The notes under the pieces are model-generated. The model was not told the DNA's origin and ran no database searches. It saw nothing but the letters and a program-made list of their open reading frames with translations. Positions 12 through 51,713 of a stretch of 64,000 nucleotides of DNA are shown piece by piece. The position numbers and the translations under genes were made by a program. Location: IMG/VR virus record IMGVR_UViG_3300031521_000025, positions 1 to 64,000 of that record, one strand, 5' to 3'. Source of the stretch: a virus. Within the stretch, counting starts at the first letter, position 1. The number at the start of each line of letters is the position of its first letter.

Positions 12-704
12 ATGAAAACAGAAAAAGAAAAGCAATTAGAAATAGACTTGTTAGTTGAAAAGATTCAACGTATTAGCAAAAAGAAAGTAGTATTTAAAGA
101 AGATGTTTATTATGGAGATAGATATCCAAAAAAAACAGATTCAGAAGTTGAAAAAGAAATAAAAGAAGCAATTTTAGAAGTAGTTAATATTGATGATGAA
201 ACCGAAACTTTAAGTGTAAGCAAAGGAGGAGAACTTGTTTCTTTCCAATGTAAGTTTTATACTAATAATAAAGGAAAAAGAGTTAGAGGTGCAGTTCATA
301 ATGTAGCAGAATGGGATGACACAATAGAAAGTATTCAAAGAATTTATCCAGATTATGAAGTTATAAACAAAACATTAAATGGTTTTGCTTTATCTAATTA
401 TAACAGTAAATCGCCTCTTAAAGAAGTTTCTTCTTTACCTATTGAAGAATCAACCGACAACATTGATACAAAAAATTACATAGCTATCGCAAGATGGACA
501 GAAGATGGAGAAGAAAAATGGGATGTAATTGGTGGAATTGGAGAAGAAAAACTTGATCAAAAAGAAGCTGAAGAATTAGCAAGAAAATCTTACTCAAGCT
601 GGAATAAAAACGCTCCAGAAGGGGGAAAAACATCTGATGTACAATACAAAGCATTAGTTGTTACTCAAGCAAGATACGATCAATTACTTAGTGAAGAAAA
701 GTAA
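12..704 (+). CDS. Hypothetical protein with the shared N-terminal 18-aa motif (candidate head-packaged protein)
   Basis: 230-aa ORF; aa13-30 LLVEKIQRISKKKVVFKE; internal LKE and IEE sites. Confidence 0.6.
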   Translation: MKTEKEKQLEIDLLVEKIQRISKKKVVFKEDVYYGDRYPKKTDSEVEKEIKEAILEVVNIDDETETLSVSKGGELVSFQCKFYTNNKGKRVRGAVHNVAEWDDTIESIQRIYPDYEVINKTLNGFALSNYNSKSPLKEVSSLPIEESTDNIDTKNYIAIARWTEDGEEKWDVIGGIGEEKLDQKEAEELARKSYSSWNKNAPEGGKTSDVQYKALVVTQARYDQLLSEEK

Positions 705-724
705 TCAATTGACATTTAATTTAC

Positions 725-768
725 AAAAACCTCTTTTAAGTTATTTTAGAAGAGGTTTTTGTTTTTTT
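725..768 (+). terminator. Intrinsic terminator
   Basis: AAAAACCTCTTTTAA...TTAGAAGAGGTTTTT hairpin plus T-tract after ORF 12..704. Confidence 0.75.
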
Positions 769-810
769 AATTATATTTAATAAAAAACTTTAAACAAAAA
801 ATATAAAATA

Positions 811-2328
811 ATGATATTAAAAGAAGTTAGAAAACCAGCAGAGTTCGAAGAAATTTATGATGATGTAATTACACCTGAAGAGATTCAAAGTGAATTTGAT
901 ATTAATATTGAAGATTTAGAGCAAATTACATTAGAAGAATTATACTCCAAAACACCAAATCCAGACCCTCTTGACGAGTTTGATAACCCACCTTCAGGTC
1001 GATATTTTATTTTATTAGATAAAGAAAAAAATGTAGAATTTTTTATTGATACACAAGAGTATAATTATTGTAGATATGCTTATAAACTTGAAAGATCTTC
1101 AAATTCTGTAAATGAATCACAAACTGCTATTATAGATGCTCAACAATTACCTATTGAAGAAGAAACTTCTGTAGTTATGGAAAGTGATGATTTTAAATCT
1201 TGGATGATTAAAGAAAACAATTATTTCGAAAGAGAAGATGCAAAAAAAGGAGTAACTGTTTATCAATTAATGATATCTCCAGAAACTAATAAAGAATATC
1301 TTGATAGTGGAAAAGTAGTAGATGAAGATTGGGCTGCAGGTAATATAGATATTGTATGGCAAGACGAAGTTCACGAATTTGATGTTCCAATGAATTCTGT
1401 TTACTTAAAACCAGCTAAAGAAAACCAAATAGAAGAGGCAACAGAAGTAGAATTTAATAATGAAGAAAATATTAAAGTTTACAATTATGAGGTTTATATG
1501 AAAAACCCAGAAACTGGAGAAAATGGTTGGTCTATAAGCTTTTTTAATATTTTTGCAAAAGATAAAGAAGAATCAAGACAAATTTTAAGATCAATTCCTT
1601 ATTTTGATGCTGTAATTCTTTATAATGGAGAATCAAAAGCTACAGATAAAGATATAAAAGCTTATGCCGAAGGATACGATTACAAAGAAGTTGAGTCTTC
1701 ATCTGGAGAAAAGGATTCTCTTGAAGAAGGTTTCGAAGATTACGACGAAGATTACGATGATGAAGATAATGTTGAAGAAGTTAACGATACACGCGAGACT
1801 GAAAATTTTAAACTATATTTTAACCATGAAGACAATCTTTTTACAATAGACTTCCTTAATGAAAACTCAAACATATATAAAATTATTAAAAACTCAATGG
1901 GTAAACTTAATAATAATTATATATTTAACTTAGGAGTGGATTTAAACCAAGAAGATTTAGATATATTAATACCTATTTTGGAAAAACATAAACAAGATCC
2001 TGATGTTGAAGTTTTTTTAACAAGTCTAGTTGATTTGAAAAATCCTAAAAAAACTTTAGAAGAATCTGAATCTGCAAATGAAGAAACTTTTTCAGCATAT
2101 GTATGTGAAAGATGTGGGTTTATTTTTGATGTAGAAGAAAATAATTTTGAATTAAAATGTCCAATGTGTAAAAACGCTAACGAAGATGCTTTTGAAGAAG
2201 TTGCAATAACGGTAAATAACAAAGATAATGGTTTTAAAATATCTTCGATAAAGGTTGGCAATGAAGAAAAAATTAAAGATCCAGATTATTTGGAAAGTGC
2301 AGAAGTTTTTATAGACGAAAATAAATAA
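811..2328 (+). CDS. Acidic multi-module hypothetical protein with C-terminal Zn ribbon
   Basis: 505 aa, very E/D rich; CERC...CPMC; modules separated by ILKE/VNE/IEE/LEE sites. Confidence 0.6.
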   Translation: MILKEVRKPAEFEEIYDDVITPEEIQSEFDINIEDLEQITLEELYSKTPNPDPLDEFDNPPSGRYFILLDKEKNVEFFIDTQEYNYCRYAYKLERSSNSVNESQTAIIDAQQLPIEEETSVVMESDDFKSWMIKENNYFEREDAKKGVTVYQLMISPETNKEYLDSGKVVDEDWAAGNIDIVWQDEVHEFDVPMNSVYLKPAKENQIEEATEVEFNNEENIKVYNYEVYMKNPETGENGWSISFFNIFAKDKEESRQILRSIPYFDAVILYNGESKATDKDIKAYAEGYDYKEVESSSGEKDSLEEGFEDYDEDYDDEDNVEEVNDTRETENFKLYFNHEDNLFTIDFLNENSNIYKIIKNSMGKLNNNYIFNLGVDLNQEDLDILIPILEKHKQDPDVEVFLTSLVDLKNPKKTLEESESANEETFSAYVCERCGFIFDVEENNFELKCPMCKNANEDAFEEVAITVNNKDNGFKISSIKVGNEEKIKDPDYLESAEVFIDENK

Positions 2329-2339
2329 AAATAAAATTT

Positions 2340-2371
2340 AAACCCTTTTATAGAAATTTAAAAGGGTTTTT
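2340..2371 (+). terminator. Intrinsic terminator
   Basis: AAACCCTTTT...AAAAGGGTTTT hairpin. Confidence 0.65.
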
Positions 2372-2390
2372 ATATTTAATAAAAAAAGAA

Positions 2391-3425
2391 ATGAATAATT
2401 CTCAAAAACTTCAAATATTAATAGAAAAACTTGAAAGTATATCTAATAAGTTAATTATACTTTCAGAAGATGAAAATGTAATTAATAAAGTTAACAAAAA
2501 AGAAGATATATCTGAATTAAAAAGAAAATTGGATTTATTAATTACTATTGATAAAAATGAAATAATCTTTAAAGGAATTTTAGGTTCTCAAGAATTAAAT
2601 ATCTTCAAAACTTATTATAAAAAATACACTATTAATGTTGAAGGCGATGTTTATATAAAAAGTTTAAATTTAAAAAGAATTCCTATTAATTTTGGTTATG
2701 TAAAAGGGAATTTTGATTGTTCTGATAATCAATTATTAACTTTAAAAAACGGACCAATTGCAGTATCTGGTATTTATAATTGCAGTCATAATCGTTTAGA
2801 ATCTTTAGAATATAGTCCTAAAAAACTTAATAGCAGTTTTTTATGTATGTATAATAGCTTGTTAACTTTAAAAGGATGTACTAATATAATTCCTGGAGTT
2901 TTAAATTGCTCTTTTAATGAATTATCATCTCTTGAAGGATGCGCAAGCAGTATAGGTAAAGATTTTTATTGTCATCATAATAAATTAAAAAGCTTATCTG
3001 GAGGACCACAGCAAGTAGGAATGTCTTACGAATGTCATAATAACAGTTTATTGTCTTTGACAGGAAGCCCTAGTGAAATTAATACAGATTTTAATTGTTC
3101 ATACAACCAATTAACTTCTTTAAAAAACGGACCTCAAAAGGTAAGAATAGATTTCAATTGCTCGTATAACAAATTAACTTCTTTAATCGGTTGTCCACAA
3201 AACATAGGAGATTTTTTTGATTGCTCTAACAATCAATTAATAAATCTAAAAGGAGGTCCAACTTATGTTGGAAATTATTATTCTTGTGCGAAAAATAACA
3301 TTAATTCTTTGGAAGGTATTTCGAAAAAAATAAATGGAGATTTTTGGTGTAATGATAATAGCAAAGTTTTTTCTAAAGAAGAAGTAAAACTAAAAAGTGC
3401 TATTTCTGGAAAAATTATTAGTTAA
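2391..3425 (+). CDS. Leucine-rich-repeat protein (22-aa repeats) with the shared N-terminal motif
   Basis: About 10 repeats of FxCSxNxLxSLxGxPxxV; aa9-26 ILIEKLESISNKLIILSE. Confidence 0.8.
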   Translation: MNNSQKLQILIEKLESISNKLIILSEDENVINKVNKKEDISELKRKLDLLITIDKNEIIFKGILGSQELNIFKTYYKKYTINVEGDVYIKSLNLKRIPINFGYVKGNFDCSDNQLLTLKNGPIAVSGIYNCSHNRLESLEYSPKKLNSSFLCMYNSLLTLKGCTNIIPGVLNCSFNELSSLEGCASSIGKDFYCHHNKLKSLSGGPQQVGMSYECHNNSLLSLTGSPSEINTDFNCSYNQLTSLKNGPQKVRIDFNCSYNKLTSLIGCPQNIGDFFDCSNNQLINLKGGPTYVGNYYSCAKNNINSLEGISKKINGDFWCNDNSKVFSKEEVKLKSAISGKIIS

Positions 3426-4081
3426 ATTTTTTCAATATATAATTGTTTTCCTTTTTGTTTGATTTTATAATTTGTAATCACTCCTTTTTTGATATATTTT
3501 TTTATACATCCTTGAGCGGAAGAAATATTTGAGTAATGATGGTCGATTTCTTTAAAAAGATCAGATAATTTATATTCTGTTTTATCTTTCATAAAATCAT
3601 TTATATTCGCGATTGTTTTTTTGTAAACTGTAAAGTATTCAGATTTAGCATTTCCAGCTTTTGACTTTTTCTGTTCTTCAAACAAAGGCGGTAGTTTAAA
3701 CTTAGGGTTAATTTCAGATTCTGTTAACATTTCTACATTACCATTTTCTGAAACTTCAAAAATCCCTACACCTAGTTTTTGACAAACATAAACAGCAAAT
3801 CTTCTTGATTTTACTGGTCTTCTTTTAGGTTTAGGAACTCCAATGTAAACTTTTTTTGCAAAAGCTTTCCATCTAAATGCTTGTTCTATTACTTTTAAAC
3901 TTAAAGTTGTTTTCACTTCAATTACAAATGCATCTACTATAACATCTTTTTCTTTTTTTACAAAATAGCAATCACATCTAATTGCTCCACCTGTACCTGA
4001 TTTGCTTACTTCTTTATAACAAGTAAGGTTTTTGTTTTCAAAATAAGTTACAATTTTTTTTGCAAGTACAGTTTCTTTCAT
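3422..4081 (-). CDS. PD-(D/E)XK nuclease-like protein
   Basis: EV...RCD...VIEVK...Q motif order typical of the restriction-endonuclease fold. Confidence 0.55.
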   Translation of the reverse strand: MKETVLAKKIVTYFENKNLTCYKEVSKSGTGGAIRCDCYFVKKEKDVIVDAFVIEVKTTLSLKVIEQAFRWKAFAKKVYIGVPKPKRRPVKSRRFAVYVCQKLGVGIFEVSENGNVEMLTESEINPKFKLPPLFEEQKKSKAGNAKSEYFTVYKKTIANINDFMKDKTEYKLSDLFKEIDHHYSNISSAQGCIKKYIKKGVITNYKIKQKGKQLYIEKI

Positions 4082-4275
4082 ATTTTTGTTTTTTTTAAAT
4101 ATAACTTTTTGCGATTTTTATATTTTTATTATATTTAAAATTGGTTATGAGTCCAACACAAATACAAAGGGAGTATATCTAATTTTTATTTTTAGATACT
4201 ACTCCCTTTGTTATTTTTCTTTCAAAAACAGTGTAAATTCGAATTAAATTAATATTTAGACATATATAGCTAAAA

Positions 4276-4938
4276 ATGAATAAACAAGAGAAAATACATA
4301 TGTTAAAAGAGCGTCTAGAGCTTGTAAGTAGTAAAAAAGTTATTCTTAAAGAAGTAAACGAAGGGAAGTATAAATTTGGATGCGCAATGTTGTATTTTGA
4401 CTTTCCTGAATTAAAAGATTTTCAAAAAAAAATATCAACAGATGATATTTATAATAAACCAGGATTCGGACTTGAAACTGAACCTCATTTAACTTTATTA
4501 TATGGTTTTCATTATAAAGAAACAAATAGTGAAGAAGTATTTAAAGAAATTCTAAAAACTAAACTTCCACAATTGCTTTTACATAATGTTTCTTCTTTTA
4601 ACAATAAAGATTTTGATGTACTTAAATTTGATTGCGAACAACAAGTAGGTAGAGGAATATATTCAAAGGAAAAAGATCCTTTGTTTAAAATTAATAAAGA
4701 TTTAACATTAAACTTTTCTTATACGTCAGATTTTCCTGATTATCATCCACACTCTACTATAGCTTATCTTAATTCAGGTACAGCAAAAAAATATATTGAA
4801 ATGTTTAAAGAAGAGTTTTTTACAGTTAATCCTTATAAAATTGTTTATTCGGAACCAATTGATAATGGAAATAAAACTAAAAAGTTTGAACATATTTTAT
4901 CAAAAGAGGAAAAATTACCGAAAACTATAATAAAATAA
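4276..4938 (+). CDS. 2H phosphoesterase, T4 gp57B/Acb1-like (candidate anti-CBASS nuclease)
   Basis: Two HxT motifs: EPHLTLLYG and DYHPHSTIAY; N-terminal shared 18-aa motif. Confidence 0.8.
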   Translation: MNKQEKIHMLKERLELVSSKKVILKEVNEGKYKFGCAMLYFDFPELKDFQKKISTDDIYNKPGFGLETEPHLTLLYGFHYKETNSEEVFKEILKTKLPQLLLHNVSSFNNKDFDVLKFDCEQQVGRGIYSKEKDPLFKINKDLTLNFSYTSDFPDYHPHSTIAYLNSGTAKKYIEMFKEEFFTVNPYKIVYSEPIDNGNKTKKFEHILSKEEKLPKTIIK

Positions 4939-4940
4939 TT

Positions 4941-5567
4941 ATGCTGACTTTAGAATATTTAGGAACTTTAGATGATAGAACTAGAACAGAAGTAGTTCTC
5001 AAAGAATATATTAAGTGTATTAGAGATCCTTTATATACAATTAAAAATTATTTTCCTATTTCAGACCCTGCTACTGGTCTTGAATCTTTATTTAATCCTT
5101 ATCCTTATCAAGAAAGAGCAATAAAAAGTTTTGAAGAGTTTAGTTATAATTTAACTATGAAAACAAGACAAACAGGCTTAACAACTGTTTCTCAAGCTTA
5201 TGTTGCATGGTATATGGCAACAAAAAAGAAAAAAGTCGTAAATGCATTAGCACAAGAGAAAAAAACATCTCGTAAGTTTTTAAAAGGAGTTAGAGAGTTT
5301 TTAGATGGAGCAAGAAAAAAAGCTCCATGGTTAATACCTGATTATATTGTTGGTAATGATGCTAAAGAATCTTTTGGGTTAGTTAACGGTAGTACTATCT
5401 TAGCAGAAGCTAATAAACCTGATGCTTGTCGTGGAGATACAATATCACTTCTATGTATAGATGAATCCATTTCATTTGATACTAACGTATTAATACGAAA
5501 TAAATCAAGCAAAGCTTTAAGTAAAGTAGAAATAGGTAAAATATTTTATGATGAAAGTTATAAATAG
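4941..5567 (+). CDS. terL: Terminase large subunit N-terminal ATPase fragment fused to a split-intein N part
   Basis: YPYQ adenine-binding motif, KTRQTGLTT Walker A, RG...LLCIDE Walker B, then a 33-aa intein-like tail. Confidence 0.9.
   Translation: MLTLEYLGTLDDRTRTEVVLKEYIKCIRDPLYTIKNYFPISDPATGLESLFNPYPYQERAIKSFEEFSYNLTMKTRQTGLTTVSQAYVAWYMATKKKKVVNALAQEKKTSRKFLKGVREFLDGARKKAPWLIPDYIVGNDAKESFGLVNGSTILAEANKPDACRGDTISLLCIDESISFDTNVLIRNKSSKALSKVEIGKIFYDESYK
5466..5564 (+). mobile_element. Split intein N-fragment (IntN, 33 aa, Ser1)
   Basis: SISFDTNVLIR matches intein block A directly after Walker B DE; ends VEIGKIFY like short atypical IntN fragments. Confidence 0.8.
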
Positions 5568-5606
5568 TTGATAATCCTTAGTATTTAAAACAAAAAACAA
5601 ATTGTA

Positions 5607-5831
5607 ATGAAATTAGAAATATTTAAATGCGGAACTCCAGTAGTTATTATTGTAAGTAAACAAAAAGCAACAATTTCTATGGTTCAAATAAAATATGATC
5701 AAATTCTATATGAATGTTCCTTTTACAATCCAGAAATAAATTCTCACCAAACATTATTATTACATAGTGAAGAGTTTTCTATTAGACAAGGAGAAGGTAA
5801 AAATATAATTGGTTTTAAATATAAAATATAA
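5607..5831 (+). CDS. Hypothetical protein lying between the terminase halves
   Basis: 74-aa ORF; GTATTTAA motif at 5581; A-rich start context. Confidence 0.65.
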   Translation: MKLEIFKCGTPVVIIVSKQKATISMVQIKYDQILYECSFYNPEINSHQTLLLHSEEFSIRQGEGKNIIGFKYKI

Positions 5832-5836
5832 AAAAA

Positions 5837-9496: not shown

Positions 9497-9558
9497 AATA
9501 TTTAGACTTTAAAAAGATAGAAACCAAACTTAATCAATATTTAAAATAAAATATATAA

Positions 9559-10008
9559 ATGGAAATAACATCGCAAAATTATATTAACCCACAATTTGAA
9601 GAACAAAGTTATGTAATTCTTAATATGGTTTTAGCAGCAGCAAAGAGATCAGAGCCAAAGTTAAATACAACAAATAGTTTATCTGAGAAAGATGAAAAGG
9701 TTATGGTTGATTTTGGCGCTAAAGTTTTAAAAGGAAATACAACCGCAGAGTTATATGCAAATAAATTTATTTCTATAGTAGAAAAAATAATAGGTGGAAA
9801 GATTTCTGAAAAAGACTATTTAAAAACTAAAATACAAAATTACATCAAAAGAGATTTTTTAGAAGATAAAAACAATATATTAGAACTTTCATTGTTGAAA
9901 GAAAAACTTGAGAGAATGAGTAAAAAAAAGGTTATAATAGGAGAAGATACAGGTAGTTTGGGGTTTAAAGAAAAAATCAAAACATTGTTTAAAGAAAATT
10001 ATTGTTAG
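9559..10008 (+). CDS. Hypothetical protein carrying the shared 18-aa motif near its C-terminus
   Basis: LLKEKLERMSKKKVIIGE; ATATTTAA at 9537. Confidence 0.6.
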   Translation: MEITSQNYINPQFEEQSYVILNMVLAAAKRSEPKLNTTNSLSEKDEKVMVDFGAKVLKGNTTAELYANKFISIVEKIIGGKISEKDYLKTKIQNYIKRDFLEDKNNILELSLLKEKLERMSKKKVIIGEDTGSLGFKEKIKTLFKENYC

Positions 10009-10040
10009 TAAAAAAAATAACTTATTTTAATAATAAAAGT

Positions 10041-19973: not shown

Positions 19974-20574
19974 AAATAAAATAACAATAGAAAAACTTAA
20001 AAAAGTTTTTGAAAATAACATGTTTTCTTTATGCAACAAAGATGATAAAGATTTTAATTTAAATATTATTGGTGTTAGAAGTAATGATTTAACACCAAAT
20101 GTATTTAATGATTTAATTTGCATCGCTTGGGTTTATAAAGGAATATGGAATTTAAAAATATATGAAGCTACTACAGATCCTGGGTTGTATTGGTTGCAAA
20201 ACCCTATGAATGTTAAAGGTGCTGCAATAATGGTTCCTGGACAATACCATGGTTGTTATGTAGTAGGGTTACATAAAGATTACAAAGCTTTAAGACAAGT
20301 TAAACCAATGAAATATTATAGAGATTATAATAGAGACAACAAACTTGATTTTAATCAAGTTACTATTGTTGAAGAAATTGGACTTACAAATATCCATAGA
20401 GCAAACGAAGTAAAAACTAGCACAATTGTTGATAAATGGTCTGCAGGTTGTCAAGTTATTGCAAACCCTATAGAATTTGATGAATTTATGACTTTATGTC
20501 AAAAAGCTAAAGAAACTTGGGGAAATAGCTTTTCTTATACATTAATAACAGAAAAAGATTTAGATAATGCTTAA
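19966..20574 (+). CDS. Putative peptidoglycan hydrolase (YkuD/L,D-transpeptidase-like endolysin candidate)
   Basis: ATTDPG, NIH....WSAGCQV (His...Cys catalytic motif). Confidence 0.6.
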   Translation: MDKNKITIEKLKKVFENNMFSLCNKDDKDFNLNIIGVRSNDLTPNVFNDLICIAWVYKGIWNLKIYEATTDPGLYWLQNPMNVKGAAIMVPGQYHGCYVVGLHKDYKALRQVKPMKYYRDYNRDNKLDFNQVTIVEEIGLTNIHRANEVKTSTIVDKWSAGCQVIANPIEFDEFMTLCQKAKETWGNSFSYTLITEKDLDNA

Positions 20575-21637
20575 AGAAGAAAAAAATAATTTAATAATTA
20601 ATTCTTTAATTAAATTATTAGAAGAAAAAACAAATAAAAAAATATTTCTTGAAGAAATTAGTTGGAAAATCCCTACTGATTTTCTTACCTGGATTGTAGA
20701 TTCTTACTCTATTCAATCTAGAAACGGTTTTCACTTTGGAGAATTTGGGGTAAATATAATAGAAAAAGATAAAAAAGAAATTCTTAGCAAACTAAAATCT
20801 TTGATATCTTCAAACCCTAAAATGTTAAGAGAATTTGAAGATCTTAAAGGATATGTTGAAGTTTTTGTTAGAAACGCTAAAATTGCAAAAGATGGAGAAA
20901 CTTATATTGATTATGATGGAAAACGTTATAGTAATAAAAACACAGATATTGTAATAAAAGCTTTTTTAAAAGATAGATACATTAGTTCAATTAAACACAC
21001 AAGTGATAGATCAAAAGAAGAATGGAAAAAAGAGGCTGAAGAAACTTTAAAGGTTGTAAAATATTTGTTTGATACTAAAAATATGAGAAAAGAAACACAT
21101 ATTTTGTTTATTAAATTAGCTCAAGAGTATATAAAAAATAAAACTTTTGAATCAAAAGATTATATAGATGCGTTTGCAAACCTTTATAATAGTAAACCAA
21201 GTTTACCTAACTATAAAGATGCGTTTGCAAACCTTTATAATAGTAAACCAAGTTTACCTAACTATAAAGATGCTTTAAAAGCTGCATTAAAATTTAATCC
21301 AAGAGCTAACGAACAAGTAAGATTTTTAAAAGGAATAACTTTTAAAACAGATATGGAATCTTCTAATCCTTATTATAATTTAGATCTTTCTCAAGTAGAA
21401 GAAAGTAAAAGAGTTCCTTTGCTTAAAGCTATAAATGATGCAAGAAATATATTAAGAGTAGATGTAACTTTTAAAAATAAACCAGCTCAATCTGTTAATA
21501 CTTTAGTAAATCAAATAAGTAAAAAATATGGAGAAGATAAAGATCCTGCTTTTGATGAATACAATAAAGGATTATTCTCTATTATTACAGATGCTGTAAA
21601 AAAATACGTAGTATTAAAACCTCTTAAAAACATTTAA
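20567..21637 (+). CDS. Hypothetical protein with the shared N-terminal motif and an internal duplication
   Basis: aa13-30 SLIKLLEEKTNKKIFLEE; DAFANLYNSKPSLPNYK x2. Confidence 0.6.
   Translation: MLKEEKNNLIINSLIKLLEEKTNKKIFLEEISWKIPTDFLTWIVDSYSIQSRNGFHFGEFGVNIIEKDKKEILSKLKSLISSNPKMLREFEDLKGYVEVFVRNAKIAKDGETYIDYDGKRYSNKNTDIVIKAFLKDRYISSIKHTSDRSKEEWKKEAEETLKVVKYLFDTKNMRKETHILFIKLAQEYIKNKTFESKDYIDAFANLYNSKPSLPNYKDAFANLYNSKPSLPNYKDALKAALKFNPRANEQVRFLKGITFKTDMESSNPYYNLDLSQVEESKRVPLLKAINDARNILRVDVTFKNKPAQSVNTLVNQISKKYGEDKDPAFDEYNKGLFSIITDAVKKYVVLKPLKNI
21166..21273 (+). repeat. Perfect 51-bp tandem duplication
   Basis: Unit starts at 21166 and 21217; AGATGC recurs at 21268. Confidence 0.95.
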
Positions 21638-24567: not shown

Positions 24568-25407
24568 ATGAAAACTTGTTTAAAATGCAACAAAGAACAT
24601 AATGGATCTTTTGGGTCTGGAAACTATTGCTGCAAATCTTGTGCAAATAGTCATGTTAGAACTGATGAAAGCAAATTATTAACGTCAAAGTCAGTTAAGA
24701 ACAGTGAAAAGGTTATTCAAGCGGTAAAAGAAAGAAGCATCAAAAGAGAAGCTTTGAAAAAAAATAAAAAAACTATAGAAGAAAAATACCCTGATCGATC
24801 AAAAGTTTTTACTCAAAATAAAAAAGAAATTTTATTAAAAACACTAGAGTGGATTAATAATAAAAAGTCTTTAACTTATATATGTAATAAGTTAGAATGT
24901 AGTAGAAATACTTTAAAAAAATTTTTCAAAATAAATAAAATTATTTATAATGGAAACCAAGGAAACAAAGGAGTGTATGTAACAAACCCTTTGGTGGATA
25001 ACTTTAAAGGATCTATTGGTACAGTAAAACAAAGAATTAAAGATGAAAATTTATTAGATTATAGTAAATGTGGAGAGTGTGGAATAAAAGAATGGAATAA
25101 AAAAGAAATAGGTTTAGAACTACACCACAAAAACGGAAACAGAAAAGACAATAGATTAGAAAATTTAATTTACTTATGTCCTAATTGTCATTCACAAACC
25201 GATACTCATAGGGCTAAAAATAAAAAATATTTAAAAAAAATAACTTCAGAAGAACTTTTAGAAATATTAAAAAAAAGCAAAAGTATAAATGAAGCTTTAA
25301 AAGAAGCGAATATGAGTACATCTCAAACTAACTATGCAAGAGCTAAAAGACTTGTAAAAAAGTTTGAGCTATTTAAAGAAGATAACAACCCTTATAGTTT
25401 TAATTAA
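24568..25407 (+). CDS. HNH homing endonuclease
   Basis: CGECG...LELHHKNGNRKDNRLENLIYLCPNCHSQT; N-terminal Zn ribbon. Confidence 0.9.
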   Translation: MKTCLKCNKEHNGSFGSGNYCCKSCANSHVRTDESKLLTSKSVKNSEKVIQAVKERSIKREALKKNKKTIEEKYPDRSKVFTQNKKEILLKTLEWINNKKSLTYICNKLECSRNTLKKFFKINKIIYNGNQGNKGVYVTNPLVDNFKGSIGTVKQRIKDENLLDYSKCGECGIKEWNKKEIGLELHHKNGNRKDNRLENLIYLCPNCHSQTDTHRAKNKKYLKKITSEELLEILKKSKSINEALKEANMSTSQTNYARAKRLVKKFELFKEDNNPYSFN

Positions 25408-25412: not shown

Positions 25413-26537
25413 TTAAATTAAAACAACCTTTTTCCCAATTAATTTCTCTAATTTTTCTATTAAGTATTTTTCAGCTTTTTTTTCAGCTACAGGTTCATCT
25501 ATTATCCCTGCTTTATATAATTTAGTATAATACTTAGGGTTATCATTAATATGATCTGTAGCTATTTTTTTTCGTAACTCATAAGAATTACCATGTTCTC
25601 TTTCTACCTCTACTCCTACTATAAATTCTGGGTTAGCTAACTTATAAGTTTGATAAAATTCTTTTTTTGCAATTCTATAAACTTCTTTTGTATCAGGGTT
25701 TATACATAAAAAATCACCTTTTTTAGCAACCATATTCTCACCCCAAGGAGCTAAAAATTTAAAAGTTTGCTTTAAATTGAATTTTTCTAAAAAAGCTTTA
25801 GAAATTTTTACAGCAATACATTCTCCAGTAGGTTCATATACATTTATGTCTGAAGTTGGAATATATCTAGTTTTAAATGTTTTATCATTTATCAAATATT
25901 GTTCTTTTGCTTCTGTTTCTATATTTGTAATAAGATAATCACCATCTTTCGCAACGTTTTCTGTTTCTTTTCCATCCGAAGTCATGGTTACTACTTTTTG
26001 ACCTTTTTTTGCAGGTACAGCTAATACTTTTGCAAACTTTTTAAATATTGTGCCTTCTTTTTCAATATACGAAGCAATATTTAACAATTCCATTCGTTCA
26101 AGTAAAATTTTCTTTTTATTGATACTTTCTGTCATAATCCAATTATTTTTATCTGATAAAGTTTCACTTATTTTAAATCCGAATTTGTTAATCATTATAT
26201 CTTTCATTTTTGGGTTAACAACCTCAATTTTCATCAAGTAATCATCTCCATAAATAGTTTTCAACTCTTCATATTCTTCAATAGCTTTAGTTATAAGAAT
26301 TTTACCTATACCTTCTCCATCGTAATCTTTTGAAACTGCAACATCCCAGGAAAAATCGTCAACATTATCAGATATAAATAAAACACCTACAATATCTTCA
26401 TCATCCATGATATAATAAAGTAATTCTTTACCATAATGAATTTTCAAATTTCTTTCTTTAGTTATTTCTAATGCTTTTTTATATATTTTTTTTTCAGCAT
26501 CTTTTGAAACATTGTATTTTATTAATTTATATGACAT
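25413..26537 (-). CDS. Multidomain protein: GNAT-like + PGDYG-like + DUF5661-like, C-terminal shared motif
   Basis: VAVSKDYDGEGIG (GNAT motif A), GDYL/APWG/GDFL, GVEVEREH..IATDH....YYTKL; ends YLIEKLEKLIGKKVVLI. Confidence 0.6.
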   Translation of the reverse strand: MSYKLIKYNVSKDAEKKIYKKALEITKERNLKIHYGKELLYYIMDDEDIVGVLFISDNVDDFSWDVAVSKDYDGEGIGKILITKAIEEYEELKTIYGDDYLMKIEVVNPKMKDIMINKFGFKISETLSDKNNWIMTESINKKKILLERMELLNIASYIEKEGTIFKKFAKVLAVPAKKGQKVVTMTSDGKETENVAKDGDYLITNIETEAKEQYLINDKTFKTRYIPTSDINVYEPTGECIAVKISKAFLEKFNLKQTFKFLAPWGENMVAKKGDFLCINPDTKEVYRIAKKEFYQTYKLANPEFIVGVEVEREHGNSYELRKKIATDHINDNPKYYTKLYKAGIIDEPVAEKKAEKYLIEKLEKLIGKKVVLI

Positions 26538-41383: not shown

Positions 41384-41473
41384 TATTTAATATGGAGATA
41401 TCAAGAGAAGAAATTGAACTTATAATTTTTGAATTATATAGGTTTTAAATTTAACATAATATAAATATATAAA

Positions 41474-42151: not shown

Positions 42152-42153
42152 TT

Positions 42154-45356: not shown

Positions 45357-45382
45357 TTTTATAACAAAATAATTAAAATATA

Positions 45383-47182
45383 ATGGCAACATTTAACGTT
45401 AAAGAAGAATCTGACAAAATGTATGTTTACTGCTCTAAAAATGCAGTATCCGATATAGCTGCTAGTGTTTTTTTTGGAAAAGCAGCTGCTTGGGTAAGTG
45501 GAGGAACTTATTCTTCTGGAGATAGAGTGACATCAAGTTCAATTCAATATAGAAACTTTACAGGAGTTAACACTACGACAGCTCCAGCAAGTGATACAGC
45601 AAACTGGGTTTTTGATTTGGATAATTATCAATCTTATTTAACTACAAAAAATTATGTAGTTGGAAGTAAAACAAATTATAATAATGAACACTATATTTGT
45701 ATAACTAATACATCTGGAACGTTTGATATTACTAAATGGACTAAACAGATTATAAGTAATAGAGATGTTCCTTATAAGTTACAAAATACTGCAATAAATT
45801 TAATAAATTCGGATGCTAGGTTTGTAAGTTATGAGTTATTAGACTATACTAATAATGTTGCATATCACAATATTTATTGTATATTAAGTAATGGAATATG
45901 GGCAGAAACTTTAACTAATCCAACTAAGTACATACGTTTTGTGGGTCAAAGTAATTTAAAAACACAGATGCTTAATCATATAACAGGTTTTTTCTATGAT
46001 AATATGTACATATATAGCGCTGTAAATTTTAACATTTTCAAATGTAATTCATGTATGTTTTATTCTATTAGTTCTTCAAATAATACCTATTATTATTATA
46101 CATTCAGTTTTTTTTATAAAAATGTTGTTCAGAATACTACACCTTCTTGTTGTTACGTATATCATTTCAATAATAACACATTAATCAACGGAGGGTTGTT
46201 TTATGAGCCTATAACATATTATGCAAATACGGTTATTCGTAATAATATTATAAAAGGCGTTTCTTTTATGGGATCTACATATATGATTCAGCGTATACCT
46301 TTAGGTAATTTTGATTACAACTGTTATTGTGGTATAGTTTATATTGATGGTGTTGCAAAATCGACTCTTGTATCTATACAATCTGCAACAGTAAACCAGA
46401 ATATATACTCAGTATATAATACTAATATATCATTAAATCCAGATTATACATTACCAGTAGGGTCCCCTTTAATAAAAACTGGATCAAATGGAAACAATAT
46501 AGGGGCAGAAGGAGTTGGGTATCCACAAACAAATTCAGGTATTTTTGATTCTCTAAACGGAGCTGTGTATAAAAACATTACTAAATACGGAACTACACTT
46601 ACACGCCAGCAAATATCTAAACAAGCTCAAGGTGGAGGTAATAATTATATTACTTTAGAATCAGCTGCGTCATCTGTAAATTTTGAATATAATGGGTTTA
46701 GAATTTATATTTCATCTGGTACTGGTGTAGGACAAACAAGAACAATTTTAACATATAATGCATCTACAAAAGATGCAACTGTAGATTTAAATTGGACTAT
46801 TAATCCTGATTCAACTTCTATTTATGAAATTTTAGATGGAGAAATAACTTCTTCTGTAGGAGATTTAGGTAGTGTTCAAACTGTAAAAAAATTACTTATA
46901 CAGGCAACAAACTTCTATGATGCAACCGGTTATATTTTAACTCAAAGTGTATCTGAAACAGATTGTCGTTTAGATAATCCTGCTGCTTTAACATTTGATT
47001 TAAGAGTAAGTAACTCTAGTGACCTAAGTGCGGTTTCTTATAGAAGATTTGTACAAGATGAATTTTTAAAAATTGATAGTAACGATAAAGGATGTGGAGA
47101 CTCAGCATATAGTTGTGCTAATTTAGTTTCAAGTGTTTTATCATTTAGATATTTCCAAATTAGATTAATGCTTAGAAAATAA
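45383..47182 (+). CDS. Tailspike-like protein with carbohydrate-binding modules and beta-helix
   Basis: AWVSGGTYSSGDRV...W (CBM5/12-like), NNTL/NNII/DYNCY beta-helix, DYTLPVGSPLI.TG..IGA. Confidence 0.65.
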   Translation: MATFNVKEESDKMYVYCSKNAVSDIAASVFFGKAAAWVSGGTYSSGDRVTSSSIQYRNFTGVNTTTAPASDTANWVFDLDNYQSYLTTKNYVVGSKTNYNNEHYICITNTSGTFDITKWTKQIISNRDVPYKLQNTAINLINSDARFVSYELLDYTNNVAYHNIYCILSNGIWAETLTNPTKYIRFVGQSNLKTQMLNHITGFFYDNMYIYSAVNFNIFKCNSCMFYSISSSNNTYYYYTFSFFYKNVVQNTTPSCCYVYHFNNNTLINGGLFYEPITYYANTVIRNNIIKGVSFMGSTYMIQRIPLGNFDYNCYCGIVYIDGVAKSTLVSIQSATVNQNIYSVYNTNISLNPDYTLPVGSPLIKTGSNGNNIGAEGVGYPQTNSGIFDSLNGAVYKNITKYGTTLTRQQISKQAQGGGNNYITLESAASSVNFEYNGFRIYISSGTGVGQTRTILTYNASTKDATVDLNWTINPDSTSIYEILDGEITSSVGDLGSVQTVKKLLIQATNFYDATGYILTQSVSETDCRLDNPAALTFDLRVSNSSDLSAVSYRRFVQDEFLKIDSNDKGCGDSAYSCANLVSSVLSFRYFQIRLMLRK

Positions 47183-47192
47183 TATTATTACA

Positions 47193-48185
47193 ATGGCAGA
47201 TATTAATTCAGGTTTAATAGCTTATTACCCATTTAATGGGAATGCAAATGATGAAAGTGGAAATAATCATAATGCAATATTTAATAATGCATCGTTAACA
47301 CCAGACAGACATGGTTTAGTTGATAGTGCTTATAACTTTGCAGGTAATCAAAATATAGCTGTATTTAACAAAGAAGTATTACCTCTTACTGATATAACTA
47401 TAAGTATGTGGATATATAAAACACCTACAGCTAGTAATGAGAATAATAGACCATTTGGTAATGATAATTCGTTATCAGAATCAGATGGTCTTGCTATGTG
47501 GTTTAATACAAACACACCATCTTTAATTATGCGAAATAATGGTGTTAATAATGATACTAATTGGGGTCTTACAGTATCTAATAATACTTGGTATTTATAT
47601 ACTGTTACTATATCATCAACTACAGGATTACATTTATATCTAAATGGTGTAAATGTTGCAAATAATGCAAATGCGAAAGCATATTCAAGATCAAATAACA
47701 CTTATTTTTATATAGGATCGGCAGGTAACCCCAATTACTATTTCACTGGTAAAATGGATGAAATACGTTTTTATAACAGAGTGTTATCTGATATAGATGT
47801 TTCGACATTATATTTTTCAACAAAGGATGGAAAAGAAAACCTAAATTCAGTATCAATAATACAAAACATAGATATATCTCAATCTTTTGATGAAAAAGTT
47901 GGATTAATTAGTCCGGTTTTAAACCTTGACGTAGCTCAATCTTTAGAAGAAAAAGTAGGTTTAGTAAGTCCAGTAGTTAATCTTGATATAGCTGCAACAT
48001 TAGAAGAAAGAACATTAGCTTTTACTCTTATATTAGGGCAAGAAAACGAAAATCAAAGAAATGTAATTCATCATTGTGGAACATCTTCTCAAAATCAATC
48101 AAATTCAAACAAAATTTGGATAGATAAAGGTTTTGTGAAAATAATAGCTCAAAGTAATATAGAACACAGTCAAATTGTTGTTTAA
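47193..48185 (+). CDS. LamG domain protein
   Basis: GLIAYYPFNGNANDESGN...DR.G...AYNF...FTGKMDEIRFYNRVLS. Confidence 0.88.
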   Translation: MADINSGLIAYYPFNGNANDESGNNHNAIFNNASLTPDRHGLVDSAYNFAGNQNIAVFNKEVLPLTDITISMWIYKTPTASNENNRPFGNDNSLSESDGLAMWFNTNTPSLIMRNNGVNNDTNWGLTVSNNTWYLYTVTISSTTGLHLYLNGVNVANNANAKAYSRSNNTYFYIGSAGNPNYYFTGKMDEIRFYNRVLSDIDVSTLYFSTKDGKENLNSVSIIQNIDISQSFDEKVGLISPVLNLDVAQSLEEKVGLVSPVVNLDIAATLEERTLAFTLILGQENENQRNVIHHCGTSSQNQSNSNKIWIDKGFVKIIAQSNIEHSQIVV

Positions 48186-48265
48186 AAAAAATAAAAGATT
48201 TATTTACTTTTTTGTTTGTTTTTTTTTATATTTAAAATAAAAATAATTACCATATTTTTTAGAAA

Positions 48266-48427
48266 ATGACTTTTAAATATTACATATTACTTTTTGTAAT
48301 TATAAGTTTTCTTATAATAATTATAGGTTTAGAAAAACAAACTAAAAGTGAATATAAAAGATATTTAAAAAAAGGAGGAGTTTTATCTTTCAAAGAATTC
48401 AAAAAAAAATACTATACTGAAGATTGA
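48266..48427 (+). CDS. Small membrane protein (53 aa)
   Basis: MTFKYYILLFVIISFLIIIIG...; stop abuts the next ATG; not in the ORF track. Confidence 0.6.
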   Translation: MTFKYYILLFVIISFLIIIIGLEKQTKSEYKRYLKKGGVLSFKEFKKKYYTED

Positions 48428-48787
48428 ATGAAAATACTTATTGTAGACGACTCTAAAACATCCGTAAAACTCATAGAAGAGCTCATTAAACACGCTTTTA
48501 GAGATTTTGTATACCAAAGTGCATTTAATGGAAAAGAAGGTTTAGAATGCTATAATAAAACAAAAGATTTTGACTTAATTATTACAGATTATCAAATGCC
48601 TTGCATAAACGGTAATTGTTTAATCAAACAAATAAAACAAATAAACTCTAATATTTTAAGTATTTGTATATCTTCTGAAAGTTTTATAAAAGATGATGAT
48701 ATATTTGATTTTATTTTACAAAAGCCAATCCATAAAGAAGAATTTATCTCTATTTTACAAAAAATAAAAAACAACTATAATGTTTAA
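48428..48787 (+). CDS. Stand-alone response regulator receiver (CheY-like)
   Basis: ILIVDDS, DLIITDYQMP..NG, ISS, KP all present. Confidence 0.9.
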   Translation: MKILIVDDSKTSVKLIEELIKHAFRDFVYQSAFNGKEGLECYNKTKDFDLIITDYQMPCINGNCLIKQIKQINSNILSICISSESFIKDDDIFDFILQKPIHKEEFISILQKIKNNYNV

Positions 48788-49820
48788 TACTCATATTCAT
48801 GTTTTCACAAAAGAAGATGTTCCTTCAAATTTTCTTCCTTTTAAATTAGTAAGAATTTTAGCAGACAAAGAAGGATACGAAATAATTGCAAGAGTTTTAC
48901 ATAATTTAAATCCTTGGACAAAAAATGATGTATTTGATAGATATTTAGAGTTTGTAAAAGAGGGAAGACTCGGTAGTCAAACTAACATTTTTGAAGATGT
49001 AGCAAAGTTTTATCCAATAGATACAAAGTTTTTTGTTTTACCTATGGATATGGAATATATGGGTGCAGGAACTACAGCAAGAGTATATAGAGATCAACTT
49101 AAAGAATTAATAGAATTATCTAAAGTTGATAAAAGAGTTGTTCCTTTTGTAATGGTTGACCCAAGAAGACCAGAAATAGAAGGTTTTGTTTTAAACAATA
49201 ATTTTGCAGGTATAAAACTATATCCAAATTTAGGATACTTTCCTTATGATAAAGATTTAATGTGGATATATAATTATTGCAGTAAATTTAATAAACCAAT
49301 TGTTGCGCATTGCACTCCTGATAATCCAGTACATTTTAAAGGATCAAAACAAGAATTAAAAGAATTATTGTTAAAATCTAAAGGTGTAGTAAATTTAAAA
49401 GGATCTAATCAAAAATTATGTGCTCAATTTATGGATCCTTATAATTATGTTTCTATTTTAAATAACTATAAAGATGTAAATATTTGTTTAGCTCATATGG
49501 GCGGAGAACAAGAAGTTTTAAAATATTTAAAAGGAGAAAAAAACACAATTACAGAAAAAATTTTAAATTTAATTGTAATGTATCCTAATCTTTATACAGA
49601 TATTAGTTATACATTATCAAACAAAAAACTATATTCTTTCCTTGATAAATTATTAGATGATGATAGATATAAAAACCGTATTCTTTTTGGAAGCGATTTT
49701 TATATGAATAAAACCAAAGGAGATGAAACTCTATTTAGCAAAAATATTAAAGAAATGTTAGGAGATAAAAAATTTGAATTAATTAGTAACACAAATGTTA
49801 ATAGTTTTTTGAAATCTTAA
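48780..49820 (+). CDS. Amidohydrolase family protein (Amidohydro_2-like)
   Basis: HIH, GIKLYP, AHC, LAHMGG, YTDIS, ILFGSDF. Confidence 0.88.
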   Translation: MFNTHIHVFTKEDVPSNFLPFKLVRILADKEGYEIIARVLHNLNPWTKNDVFDRYLEFVKEGRLGSQTNIFEDVAKFYPIDTKFFVLPMDMEYMGAGTTARVYRDQLKELIELSKVDKRVVPFVMVDPRRPEIEGFVLNNNFAGIKLYPNLGYFPYDKDLMWIYNYCSKFNKPIVAHCTPDNPVHFKGSKQELKELLLKSKGVVNLKGSNQKLCAQFMDPYNYVSILNNYKDVNICLAHMGGEQEVLKYLKGEKNTITEKILNLIVMYPNLYTDISYTLSNKKLYSFLDKLLDDDRYKNRILFGSDFYMNKTKGDETLFSKNIKEMLGDKKFELISNTNVNSFLKS

Positions 49821-50323
49821 ATTTGTGATTCTAAATATTTCTCTTTGTTAAATTTATCTAGCAAGTTATTTAAATTTCTTTTAGAATTTACACCTACTTC
49901 ATCATGCACAGTAGGTTTTAAATAAGGAACAATAGCAGGTGTCGTTATCATATTTGCTTTTTCTCCTTTATAGTTATAGTTTACCCATTCTATTTGAGGA
50001 ACTAAAGTATCTTTATTTATTTTTTCTAAAATTTTAGGAAACAATTTCAAAAAAGTAGGTAAATCTTGTTTTAAGTTAGAAATTATTTCGTTTATCAACT
50101 CTTTATATTCTTTTGAAGTAGCATTATTGTTTGGTTGCTTACAAAGACGAGATAATTGCAAATTTCTTATTTCTATTCTTGCTTTAAGTATTTTTCTTTC
50201 TAAAATTCTTTTTTTTTGTGTTTTATTTAAAGTAATTTCATTTTCTATTAAAATAACTTTAGTTTTTGAAAGACTTTGGAGTTGTTCTACTAAAAAGTCT
50301 AATTTGTTTTTAACTTTATTCAT
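49817..50323 (-). CDS. Hypothetical protein with the shared N-terminal motif; paralog of the C-terminal part of 50328..51713
   Basis: FLVEQLQSLSKTKVILIE; LPTFLKLFPKI shared. Confidence 0.65.
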   Translation of the reverse strand: MNKVKNKLDFLVEQLQSLSKTKVILIENEITLNKTQKKRILERKILKARIEIRNLQLSRLCKQPNNNATSKEYKELINEIISNLKQDLPTFLKLFPKILEKINKDTLVPQIEWVNYNYKGEKANMITTPAIVPYLKPTVHDEVGVNSKRNLNNLLDKFNKEKYLESQI

Positions 50324-50327
50324 TTTT

Positions 50328-51713
50328 TTAAGCTAAATTTCGGTTTAAATAAGTTTTTTTGTTAAAATTGTCTAAAACACTTTGCATATGTGACTTAAAA
50401 TCTTCGCTTATTGTGTCCGTACCTTTTCTTATTCCTAAATACCAAGCAATTGCATAAGGAATAATTACATCTTTATTATTTAATTGAGTTTTAAACACAA
50501 GAGGTTTAGATTTATTTAATTCTTCATTTATTTTAGGGAATAATTTTAAAAATGTAGGTAAATATTCATTTATATTGTTTTTTATTTCTTTTACAAAATC
50601 AATATAATTCGAATGTGTTTCATTATTTTTAATTTCTTTATAAATAGAGTTTAGTTTTAAACCATCAACTTCTTTTTTTGCGTTTAAAATATCTTGATTT
50701 AATTGTTTTTCAAGTTTTTCTTTTTTTGATAGCCCAAAGATTTCTACCAACAAAACTTCTTTTCCTGTAGTTCTTTCTAATTGTTCTATTAAAATTTTAA
50801 GAACAACTTCTTCTTTTTTTAAACTTTTTTGATCACTAAAGTATTTAGAATAATAAATATTATAAAGAGTAATTCCTTTACTTGTTAATTTAGATGTTAT
50901 TCCATAAGAGTTTAATTGCCCTTGAACAACTTTTGCCATCATTGTATCACAAATAAGATTAACTTCTTTGTATTTTCCTACATTTACTAAATCAATAGAT
51001 CCAGAGCATTTAAAAGAAACAGGTTTTACTCCACTTGGAGTTTTAAGATTTATTTCAAAAGGAGAGCGGTTTGAATATTCTCCTTTTACTACATAAGGAA
51101 GATCTTCTTTTTTTACAATATTTTTTTGAACATCTCCAGATAAGTTTTTAATTATAGCATCTATGTTAATTTCGGTTGTTTTAGGTTCATAGATTTGAAC
51201 CTTTGCCGTGTGATATTTAATATATTCGTTAGAAACAGCAGATCCTCCTTTTGTTATTCCAATTTCTTCATGAGACTTCATATATTTCTCCATACTACCT
51301 GTATCATTAGATAGTAAAATTGTTTTAGCAATATCATTATAAACAGGACTCCAAAATATATTTCCTGTTTTTGAATTACCCACTTCACTATCTTTTGAAG
51401 AAACTGCAATCGCAGCAGGGTAAATGTTATTATTATATTTACAAGTAAATATCCCAAAGATAAAAGCACCATATTCAAATTTACTATGTTCAGCTTCAAT
51501 AATTTTACTTGATATAGTGTCAACAATTTTACTTTTTATATCTTGTTCTATTTCTTTTTTGTATTTCAAATGTTCTGAATTTAAAAAATCAACAGATACA
51601 GAACAGTTATCTATTCTTGTTTTTTTTCTTTCCCAAAAATGTGTATCTTTTTCTTTAGTTCGAGCTTCTCTCGATGCATCGCGATATTTTAATTCTTTTA
51701 AAAGAAGTTTCAT
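50328..51713 (-). CDS. Two-module hypothetical protein with the shared motif internally
   Basis: MKLLLKE start; ILIEQLERTTGKEVLLVE; LPTFLKLFPKI. Confidence 0.65.
   Translation of the reverse strand: MKLLLKELKYRDASREARTKEKDTHFWERKKTRIDNCSVSVDFLNSEHLKYKKEIEQDIKSKIVDTISSKIIEAEHSKFEYGAFIFGIFTCKYNNNIYPAAIAVSSKDSEVGNSKTGNIFWSPVYNDIAKTILLSNDTGSMEKYMKSHEEIGITKGGSAVSNEYIKYHTAKVQIYEPKTTEINIDAIIKNLSGDVQKNIVKKEDLPYVVKGEYSNRSPFEINLKTPSGVKPVSFKCSGSIDLVNVGKYKEVNLICDTMMAKVVQGQLNSYGITSKLTSKGITLYNIYYSKYFSDQKSLKKEEVVLKILIEQLERTTGKEVLLVEIFGLSKKEKLEKQLNQDILNAKKEVDGLKLNSIYKEIKNNETHSNYIDFVKEIKNNINEYLPTFLKLFPKINEELNKSKPLVFKTQLNNKDVIIPYAIAWYLGIRKGTDTISEDFKSHMQSVLDNFNKKTYLNRNLA

Follow-up and report, generated by a model that had tools for sequence, protein, structure and literature searches.

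Eight predicted proteins of the window, a 64,000-nt stretch that forms the start of a 111-kb jumbo-phage fragment (about 41% complete, 26% GC), carry copies of one short peptide tag. We found this motif to be real, specific, and conserved at the protein level, and judging by sequence comparisons we think it probable that the tag serves a T4-superfamily jumbo-phage lineage as a portable module for capsid loading and maturation cleavage, i.e., a longer counterpart of the capsid-targeting sequence (CTS) of T4. The first-pass annotation of this DNA had listed eight ungapped copies on cargos that it called unrelated except for one pair, and this description held up when the letters were checked: all eight peptides were found exactly as quoted, N-terminal in five proteins (ORFs 12, 2391, 4276, 20567, and 49817) and internal or C-terminal in three. 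The coordinates given with that description were ORF boundaries, and the motif cores were located separately (Table 1). Only the cargos of ORFs 49817 and 50328 were akin (37.5% identity over 128 residues). The similarity in ORF 50328 lies downstream of its tag; the tag connects a 300-aa N-terminal portion to a C-terminal portion paralogous to the ORF 49817 cargo.

Table 1. Tag copies and tagged proteins in the window.
Feature	Position	Strand	Description
ORF 12-704, leader	12..101	+	Full 30-residue N-terminal form; core 48-101, ending F-K-E
ORF 12-704, cargo of 230 aa		+	Fold of cargo unassigned
ORF 2391-3425, tag core	2415..2468	+	N-terminal; 344 aa, leucine-rich-repeat-like cargo
ORF 4276-4938, tag core	4300..4353	+	N-terminal; 220 aa, 2H phosphoesterase cargo
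ORF 9559-10008, tag	9892..9945	+	Near C-terminus, residues 112-129 of 149
ORF 20567-21637, tag	20603..20656	+	N-terminal, divergent: first Glu replaced by Lys; 22.4 bits in full profile
ORF 25413-26537, tag	25416..25466	-	Extreme C-terminus; 374 aa, GNAT acetyltransferase + DUF5661
ORF 49817-50323, tag core	50243..50296	-	N-terminal; 168 aa
ORF 50328-51713, tag	50742..50795	-	Internal, residues 307-324 of 461

The motif stood out clearly when an HMM built from the eight copies was run over all six translated frames of the 111-kb contig. The copies themselves scored about 21-34 bits (21.6-32.1 bits by best domain), well above the best match outside the eight (7.9 bits) and the top score from residue shuffles (12.0 bits, n=30). 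Leave-one-out profiles regained ORFs 12, 2391, 4276, 9559, and 49817 at E<1e-3 and ORF 25413 at E=0.045, the latter still above all non-family segments; ORF 50328 was found at E=0.25, ranking slightly below the best unrelated matches. The copy in ORF 20567, which lies directly upstream of a baseplate wedge gene, was not regained by its leave-one-out profile; this motif is divergent, yet it is kept (at residues about 52-72) in the orthologue from a related phage, G007. Since the copies encode the same residues by different synonymous codons, the eight are not a DNA repeat.

Searches of the window's own 111-kb contig for an S77 or S78 protease and for portal and capsid genes gave nothing; PF03420 had no match there because the head module of this contig is missing, and the link between tag and head module therefore rests on relatives. 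Two related phages supplied the missing region: G007, and a second phage represented by two pieces, G006 and G008. G007 shares synteny and 49 proteins (25–79% identity) with the window's contig and has 22 tagged ORFs in 63% of its genome, 13 of which bear a near-identical 30-residue leader. This is the leader of ORF 12, which also occurs on P0002, an unrelated 241-aa protein. Other window copies have counterparts in G007 as well: G007_18035, the orthologue of ORF 2391-3425, retains the N-terminal tag, and the counterpart of ORF 9559-10008 is a 653-aa fusion of N-domain, tag, and 2H domain. A megablast search with the first 20 kb gave no match among cultured phages, and a search started from the helicase led to no related viral loci. 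A degenerate DNA pattern also matched five contigs of 46% GC, which carried no tag and were set aside as chance matches.

Across three contigs, 32 tagged proteins fell into 23 cargo clusters, and an exhaustive profile search of public metagenomes returned 169 leader-bearing clusters at 50% identity, 151 representatives of which sorted into 108 cargo clusters. Several of these hits share one 193-kb contig. The leader was N-terminal in 142 of these 151 (94%), only internal or C-terminal in nine, and present in more than one copy in 11. Copies in internal or C-terminal places (about 6%), and some in tandem, count against a reading of the T4-CTS type. The cargos are mostly small and without a known family; those that could be named include a 2H phosphoesterase, a GNAT enzyme, LRR proteins, NUDIX proteins, and ferritin-like proteins, e.g., a rubrerythrin/EncFtn-like protein in G007. 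One short leader is thus common to unrelated proteins, and cargo is exchanged at the leader boundary.

This boundary is sharp. Homology of the leaders spans the start codon (ATG) to a Glu codon, while the upstream DNA and the next codons are unrelated, so that the conserved block (18 residues for the core, 30 with the full N-terminal leader) stops at Leu/Phe-x-Glu, which is the cleavage motif of the T4 protease gp21. A second candidate site lies mid-tag: among the 32 tagged proteins of the three contigs, 31 had L-x-E at this first site and 29 closed the tag with [LIVMF]-x-E. The motif L-x-E carries low information in a Lys/Glu/Leu-rich proteome, which counts against reading it as a cleavage site. 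The C-terminal copy in ORF 25413 ends in V-V-L-I-stop, without the final Glu, and this also counts against cleavage. Within the leaders pS was 0.48 and pN 0.11, and pN rose to 0.67 immediately after them; selection on the leader acts at the peptide level.

In G007 the head genes run in the order portal, 302-aa protein, protease, 225-aa protein, acidic 490-aa protein, and gp23-like capsid protein. The portal is gp20-like (phrog_213, 1.6e-51), and the major capsid protein (phrog_138, 2.3e-57) had matches in 2,464 phage records, for the most part T4-type phages. PF03420 identified an S77 protease in all three (G007, 77 bits; G006 and G008, 72 bits each); it also matches phrog_207 and is homologous to T4 gp21 (PDB 5JBL, E=7e-13). 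In the alignment to 5JBL the lineage protease has His and Ser at two positions that are Ala in the crystallised chain, and we read these as its probable catalytic residues. A T4-type head module adjoining an S77 protease was thus found in the lineage (G007) and not in the window's contig. The tag occupies the extreme C-terminus of the 302-aa protein, whose gene lies between those of portal and protease; the G006 orthologue of this protein is without the tag, which counts against capsid loading, and a homologue search with the 302-aa protein returned only itself. Proteins in the scaffold position likewise held no significant motif copy, a further point against capsid loading. One tag-like internal stretch in these proteins was rejected as not significant (at most 1.2 bits).

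The 2H phosphoesterase cargo gave a parallel in other phages. ORF 4276 has both H-x-T motifs of the 2H domain, and Foldseek searches with its AF2 model matched LigT, Usb1, and cGAMP phosphodiesterases. In this model the domain begins at residue 35 with pLDDT >90 and the tag forms a helix that is not part of the 2H fold, its confidence dropping toward the tag–domain junction (pLDDT 83, 66, and 45 over residues 1-30). None of 31 loci with 2H homologues carried the present tag. In two unrelated phages with an S77 protease, the 2H homologue was nonetheless one of several ORFs under a shared leader: MKHIKLFEEFVTE, a T4-like leader, on at least 12 ORFs in G003, and MIKLVDLLKE on at least four ORFs in G002. 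In the alignment the terminal Glu of both leaders falls in the same column as that of the present tag, a few residues before the domain. Like the present tag these leaders are genome-specific, end in hydrophobic-x-Glu, and precede many unrelated small ORFs as well as a 2H cargo; they differ in being T4-like, 10–13 residues long, and N-terminal as far as seen, whereas the present tag is longer, of different sequence, and flexible in position. G003 had been considered as a relative of the window's phage and was ruled out, as the two have only five proteins in common.

The first-pass annotation had proposed that the tag targets its cargos to the capsid and contains a prohead-protease site. The S77 protease and T4-type head module of the lineage favour this proposal, as do the end of the conserved module exactly at Leu/Phe-x-Glu, the more than 100 unrelated cargos under one leader, the copy on the protein encoded between portal and protease, and the T4-CTS-like leaders on 2H cargo in unrelated S77 phages. 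The results on head module, boundary site, spread, and cargo parallel thus support capsid loading with circumstantial evidence. They also bear on the alternative of a docking or oligomerisation peptide that binds a non-capsid hub (e.g., a replication or takeover factory) and works without proteolysis. A plain binding peptide would be tolerated in N-terminal, internal, C-terminal, and tandem positions, as the tag is, and the single long helix predicted by AF2 fits such a role; however, the precise stop at L/F-x-E, the presence of the protease, the tagged protein of the head module, and the 2H cargo of the other S77 phages all speak against it, and we regard it as unlikely.

A good deal less probable is a recognition leader shared by substrates of a modifying or exporting enzyme, as in RiPP-like systems. 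Such systems do place hypervariable followers behind a conserved leader, as we observed here, but searches for radical-SAM (PF04055) in the window's contig, G007, and G006 (three incomplete contigs) found none, and the cargos are folded enzymes and proteins of up to 631 aa, unlike short core peptides. The leader is also highly charged and hence not a secretion signal. We give slightly less credence still to a recombination or expression cassette, in which a 5' coding module would be kept by gene conversion for a translation-start or regulatory role while its peptide had none: the G007 leaders do have ~90% DNA identity and are grouped in two arrays, and conserved 90-bp blocks could promote cargo swapping, but the peptide is kept despite high synonymous divergence and different codons in the window's contig, the DNA upstream of the leaders is not conserved, and internal or C-terminal copies could not serve as translation starts.

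Under capsid loading, a tagged protein would dock on the scaffolding core during prohead assembly through the amphipathic helix of the tag (about ...QLEIxLLxEKIQRIS). A Gly/Asn-Lys-Lys break would follow, and beyond it the extended V-(V/I)-(L/F)-x-E would be offered to the gp21-like S77 prohead protease, with the mid-helix L-x-E as a possible second cleavage site. The cut would release the cargo within the head, small tag fragments would exit, and the cargo would then be ejected into the host along with the DNA. An internal tag would mark the point for cutting a multi-domain precursor apart, and a C-terminal tag would be clipped at its internal site, like T4 Alt, which is processed at both ends.

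Much of this scheme has a precedent in T4, where the CTS (MKTYQEFIAE; PMC8442874) is a short leader on unrelated, fast-evolving proteins (the internal proteins IPI–III) that is removed by gp21, as are the propeptides of Alt and gp24 (PMC9026906, PMC8442874, PMC3012670). Cleavage by gp21 is after Glu in L/I-X-E, and the processing of Alt at both termini offers a precedent for a C-terminal site (PMC9026906). As in the present lineage, T4 combines a hydrophobic-x-Glu leader end with a gp20/gp21/gp23-type head module, and cargo is exchanged exactly at the leader boundary. The two peptides have no sequence similarity, and at 18–30 residues the present tag is two to three times longer than the T4 CTS (~10 residues). 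Unlike the T4 CTS, it has two candidate cleavage sites and, by prediction, a long amphipathic helix that leads into an extended site, and it is used in internal, C-terminal, and tandem positions too. We know of no T4 CTS placed in any of these three ways. The numbers differ as well: T4 has a handful of tagged genes, whereas here one genome, of which 63% is covered, has at least 22, and public data add up to 169 clusters.

Two further systems invite comparison. In phiKZ, 201phi2-1, and SPN3US, which are also jumbo phages with a gp21-related protease, head and ejection proteins bear long N-terminal propeptides that are cut by gp175/gp245 at (S/A/G)-x-E; many of the head proteins have such removable, multi-site propeptides, and paralogues have identical N-termini in common (PMC5694885). 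Propeptides of the phiKZ type are 80 to >100 residues long, specific to a protein family, and cut at small-x-Glu, whereas the present tag is one short module on unrelated cargos with Leu/Phe-x-Glu. The cargo-loading peptides of encapsulins are likewise short and portable, and they bring unrelated enzymes, including ferritin-like ones, into an HK97-fold shell; they are usually C-terminal, bound directly to the shell protein, and uncleaved, and we saw no sequence similarity between them and the present tag.

We tentatively take the comparison with T4 one step further. The tag may address proteins to the capsid in a novel way that differs from the T4 CTS, with a helix and a cleavage strand working together at any position in a protein. 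By this means one lineage could load more than 100 unrelated proteins, including a 2H phosphodiesterase that might destroy nucleotide immune signals on arrival, and could cut multi-domain precursors into effectors inside the head. If the proposed function is correct, a large part of the small, fast-evolving genes of this lineage serves delivery with the DNA, far beyond the few internal proteins of T4, and more than 100 ORFan families become candidate factors for host takeover or anti-defence in the first minute of infection. There would also be a sequence rule by which to predict injected proteins of uncultured T4-type phages from metagenomes, and a second loading peptide, unrelated in sequence and tolerant of position, useful for packing foreign proteins into T4-type heads.

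Promoter motifs did not set the tagged genes apart from those for replication, which we count against capsid loading. An ATATTTA-type motif stands ahead of head and tail genes, but replication genes have it too, and the expression of the tagged genes could therefore not be dated by it. At the tag end, F-x-E was found in 63 and L-x-E in 58 of the 151 database representatives; Phe is thus as common as Leu at P3 of the present tag, a departure from the T4 logo.

All eight peptides that the first-pass annotation had quoted as a shared tag, and as a candidate capsid-targeting and protease-cleavage signal, were present as quoted, and we located their exact coordinates. When an HMM of these peptides was searched against every stop-to-stop segment of the source contig (G000), the members scored 21.6–32.1 bits (best domain) and the next best segment 7.9 bits; 30 shuffles of the same segments reached a maximum of 12.0 bits. 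Leave-one-out profiles recovered five members at E<1e-3, followed by ORF 25413 (E=0.045, above every non-family segment) and ORF 50328 (E=0.25, ranking just below the best unrelated hits). ORF 20567 was not recovered by its leave-one-out profile, and we kept it as a divergent member because its motif is conserved in the orthologue of a related phage. The cargos had been described as unrelated except for one pair, and outside the tag we likewise saw kinship only between the 49817 and 50328 proteins. The proposed cargo identities also stood: ORF 2391 is LRR-like, ORF 25413 joins GNAT to DUF5661, and weak Pfam matches, both H-x-T motifs, an AF2 model and Foldseek all agree on a 2H enzyme for ORF 4276, while searches gave no identity for the remaining tagged window cargos. 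In a 17-homologue alignment neither H-x-T motif of this 2H phosphoesterase varied, and its confident AF2 model matched LigT, Usb1 and cGAMP phosphodiesterases by Foldseek. In that model, which covers one protein and says nothing on scaffold binding, residues 3–28 form a single helix outside the globular domain, with confidence dropping from 83 to 45 toward the junction; from residue 35 onward the domain lies above 90. This picture is consistent with a detachable extension.

G000, a viral contig whose first 64 kb form the window, is linear, 111,457 bp long and estimated to be 41% complete, with 26% GC. Scaling its 111 kb up from the completeness estimate implies a jumbo phage with an AT-rich genome of about 270 kb. 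PHROG matches identified a split terminase, baseplate wedge and hub, a tape-measure-like protein, helicase, DNA polymerase, ribonucleotide reductase and a sigma factor. Genes for a portal, a capsid protein or a prohead protease were found nowhere in the 111 kb. A homologue search with ORF 12-704 found a 241-aa database protein (P0002) whose first 30 residues are those of ORF 12 except at one position, and which is unrelated to it beyond residue 30. Starting from P0002 we reached three viral contigs. One of them, G007 (136.6 kb, 63% complete, 26% GC), shares synteny and 49 proteins with G000, most syntenic genes being 45–79% identical; the other two, G006 (29 kb) and G008 (58 kb), are 100% identical where they overlap and therefore belong to one further phage. 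In the suggested search for the motif over genome and relatives, scaffold proteins included, the G000-derived profile found 22 tagged ORFs in G007 and several more in the G006/G008 phage; scaffold-position proteins had no significant copy. A near-identical 30-residue leader, whose second half is the 18-mer originally noticed, opens 13 G007 ORFs and, in the window, ORF 12-704. Clustering the 32 tagged proteins from G000, G007 and G006 by cargo gave 23 clusters. One G007 protein with the full leader (488 aa) contains a rubrerythrin/ferritin-like domain, whose EncFtn-like match is weak, and a second leader-bearing protein of this kind was present among the database matches; a ferritin-like protein with a putative head-address leader recalls encapsulin cargo.

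An S77 prohead protease scored above the Pfam cut-off in each of G007, G006 and G008. That of G007 is homologous to T4 gp21 (PDB 5JBL, E=7e-13) and, at the two aligned positions occupied by Ala in the crystallised gp21 chain, carries His and Ser, which we read as its probable catalytic residues. In G007 the portal gene is followed by genes for a 302-aa protein, the protease, a 225-aa protein, an acidic 490-aa protein and finally a gp23-like capsid protein, which matched 2,464 phage records, mostly from T4-type phages. The 302-aa protein carries a clear tag copy at its extreme C-terminus, absent from the G006 orthologue, and stands where T4 has core genes 67 and 68.

Homologues of the ORF 4276 2H cargo were present in 31 further viral contigs, and the present tag occurred in none of them. 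Many open with a short helix whose C-terminal end reads hydrophobic-x-Glu, the final Glu aligning with the tag's Glu column a few residues ahead of the domain's first strand; others begin straight at the domain. G003, whose complete genome measures 256 kb and encodes an S77 protease, is unrelated to the window phage; its 2H leader, MKHIKLFEEFVTE, is common to at least 12 ORFs and is closely similar to the T4 capsid-targeting sequence (CTS; MKTYQEFIAE, PMC8442874). In G002, a T4-type phage (155 kb; S77 protease at E=1e-30), the 2H leader is MIKLVDLLKE, common to at least four ORFs. The same 2H enzyme is thus joined to three different genome-specific, multi-copy x-Glu leaders in three lineages with gp21-type proteases. 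Of the comparative evidence, this parallel argues most strongly for the tag as the local equivalent of a CTS. We consider it rather probable that the tag is a capsid-loading and cleavage module. In T4, L/I-X-E sites are cut by gp21 behind the Glu, and ten IPIII residues suffice for capsid targeting of a protein (PMC9026906, PMC8442874, PMC3012670). From this model and the anatomy of the tag we infer four steps, in which the tag helix would dock cargo onto the assembling core, the protease would cut at the end of the tag and probably also at its middle site, tag fragments would exit the head, and cargo would be ejected together with the DNA. Column counts gave a mid-tag L-x-E in 31 of 32 copies and a terminal [LIVMF]-x-E in 29 of 32.

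Several copies are not N-terminal. A 653-aa G007 protein fuses an ORF 9559-like domain, the tag, the 2H phosphoesterase and an extension of ~320 residues; in G000 the two domains lie in separate genes 5 kb apart, each keeping a tag. Since ORF 50328 likewise consists of an N-terminal part, the tag and a paralogue of the 49817 cargo, the tag marks domain joints too, as expected if it is cleaved. Copies at the C-terminus find a precedent in T4 Alt, both ends of which are processed by gp21 (PMC9026906). Such variable placement would also suit a peptide that docks onto some non-capsid hub, but we find that unlikely, as it leaves the exact x-Glu boundary, the head-module copy and the 2H parallel unexplained. 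Still less credible is a recognition leader for a maturase, to which folded enzyme cargos are ill-suited and for which no radical-SAM gene was found in the incomplete contigs G000, G007 and G006. A DNA-level cassette, the least probable reading, is contradicted by synonymous divergence in the leaders (pS=0.48, pN=0.11; pN=0.67 in the 20 codons downstream); by these values selection works on the peptide, and recent duplication does not account for the leaders. Codons also differ among G000 tag copies for identical residues, so the tag is no DNA repeat. In the long leaders, homology spans start codon to Glu codon, the DNA upstream and the codons after being unrelated.

An exhaustive search of 1.84 billion cluster representatives with a profile of 18 long leaders (A2) matched 169 proteins at E<=0.001, of which 33 reached E<=1e-10. 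Among 151 examined (median length 130 residues), the tag lay within the first 12 residues in 142 and was solely internal or C-terminal in nine; 11 had two copies, some in tandem, and the tag ended in F-x-E in 63 and L-x-E in 58. With tags masked, these proteins formed 108 cargo clusters, 94 of them singletons, and only ~10 cargos had a Pfam family (rubrerythrin/EncFtn-like, NUDIX, LRR, DUF3008). Double tags, in tandem or a few residues apart, occur in P0023, P0089, P0144, P0063 and P0122, mid-protein in the last two. Reviews have proposed that T4-like phages use CTSs to vary head contents (PMC9026906), and the tag principle is already known from T4; our literature search found no published leader of this sequence or length, nor internal or tandem use.

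Coordinates of tag-associated and neighbouring features
Contig	Position (strand)	Locus	Feature
G000	20567-21637		Divergent tag, protein upstream of baseplate wedge
G007	55815-57539		Counterpart of the above; 48-residue N-terminal extension makes the tag internal
G000	24568-25407 (+)		HNH homing-endonuclease gene
G000	25413-26537 (-)		Convergent GNAT-tag gene
G007	74496-76457 (-)	L059:14496-16457	653-aa fusion
G007	121097-122563	L062:1097-2563	488-aa ferritin-like protein
G003	177-200 kb	L043-L044	MKHIKLFEEFVTE and variants, most in one array adjoining 2H phosphoesterase gene
G002	Starts 24584, 25633, 82056, 106662	L081-L088	10-residue leader MIKL(V/I/L)D(L/I)LxE, at least four unrelated ORFs including 2H homologue
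G000	Genes 61836, 58869(-), 2391, 50328(-)		Examples with upstream promoter-like motif

A gap of 5 nt lies between the end of the HNH gene and the stop codon of the GNAT-tag gene, whose tag ends early, before the usual final Glu. In G007 the GNAT has a gene of its own (146 aa), and the tag is on the next gene (142 aa), so this locus may have been remodelled by the HNH insertion. Many window genes have a promoter-like motif, (T)TATATTTAA(A/T), 15–35 nt upstream, and G007 and G006 head genes have it too. Because it precedes head, tail and baseplate genes but also nrdJ and helicase genes, it looks like a promoter in general use by the phage, not one reserved for late genes.
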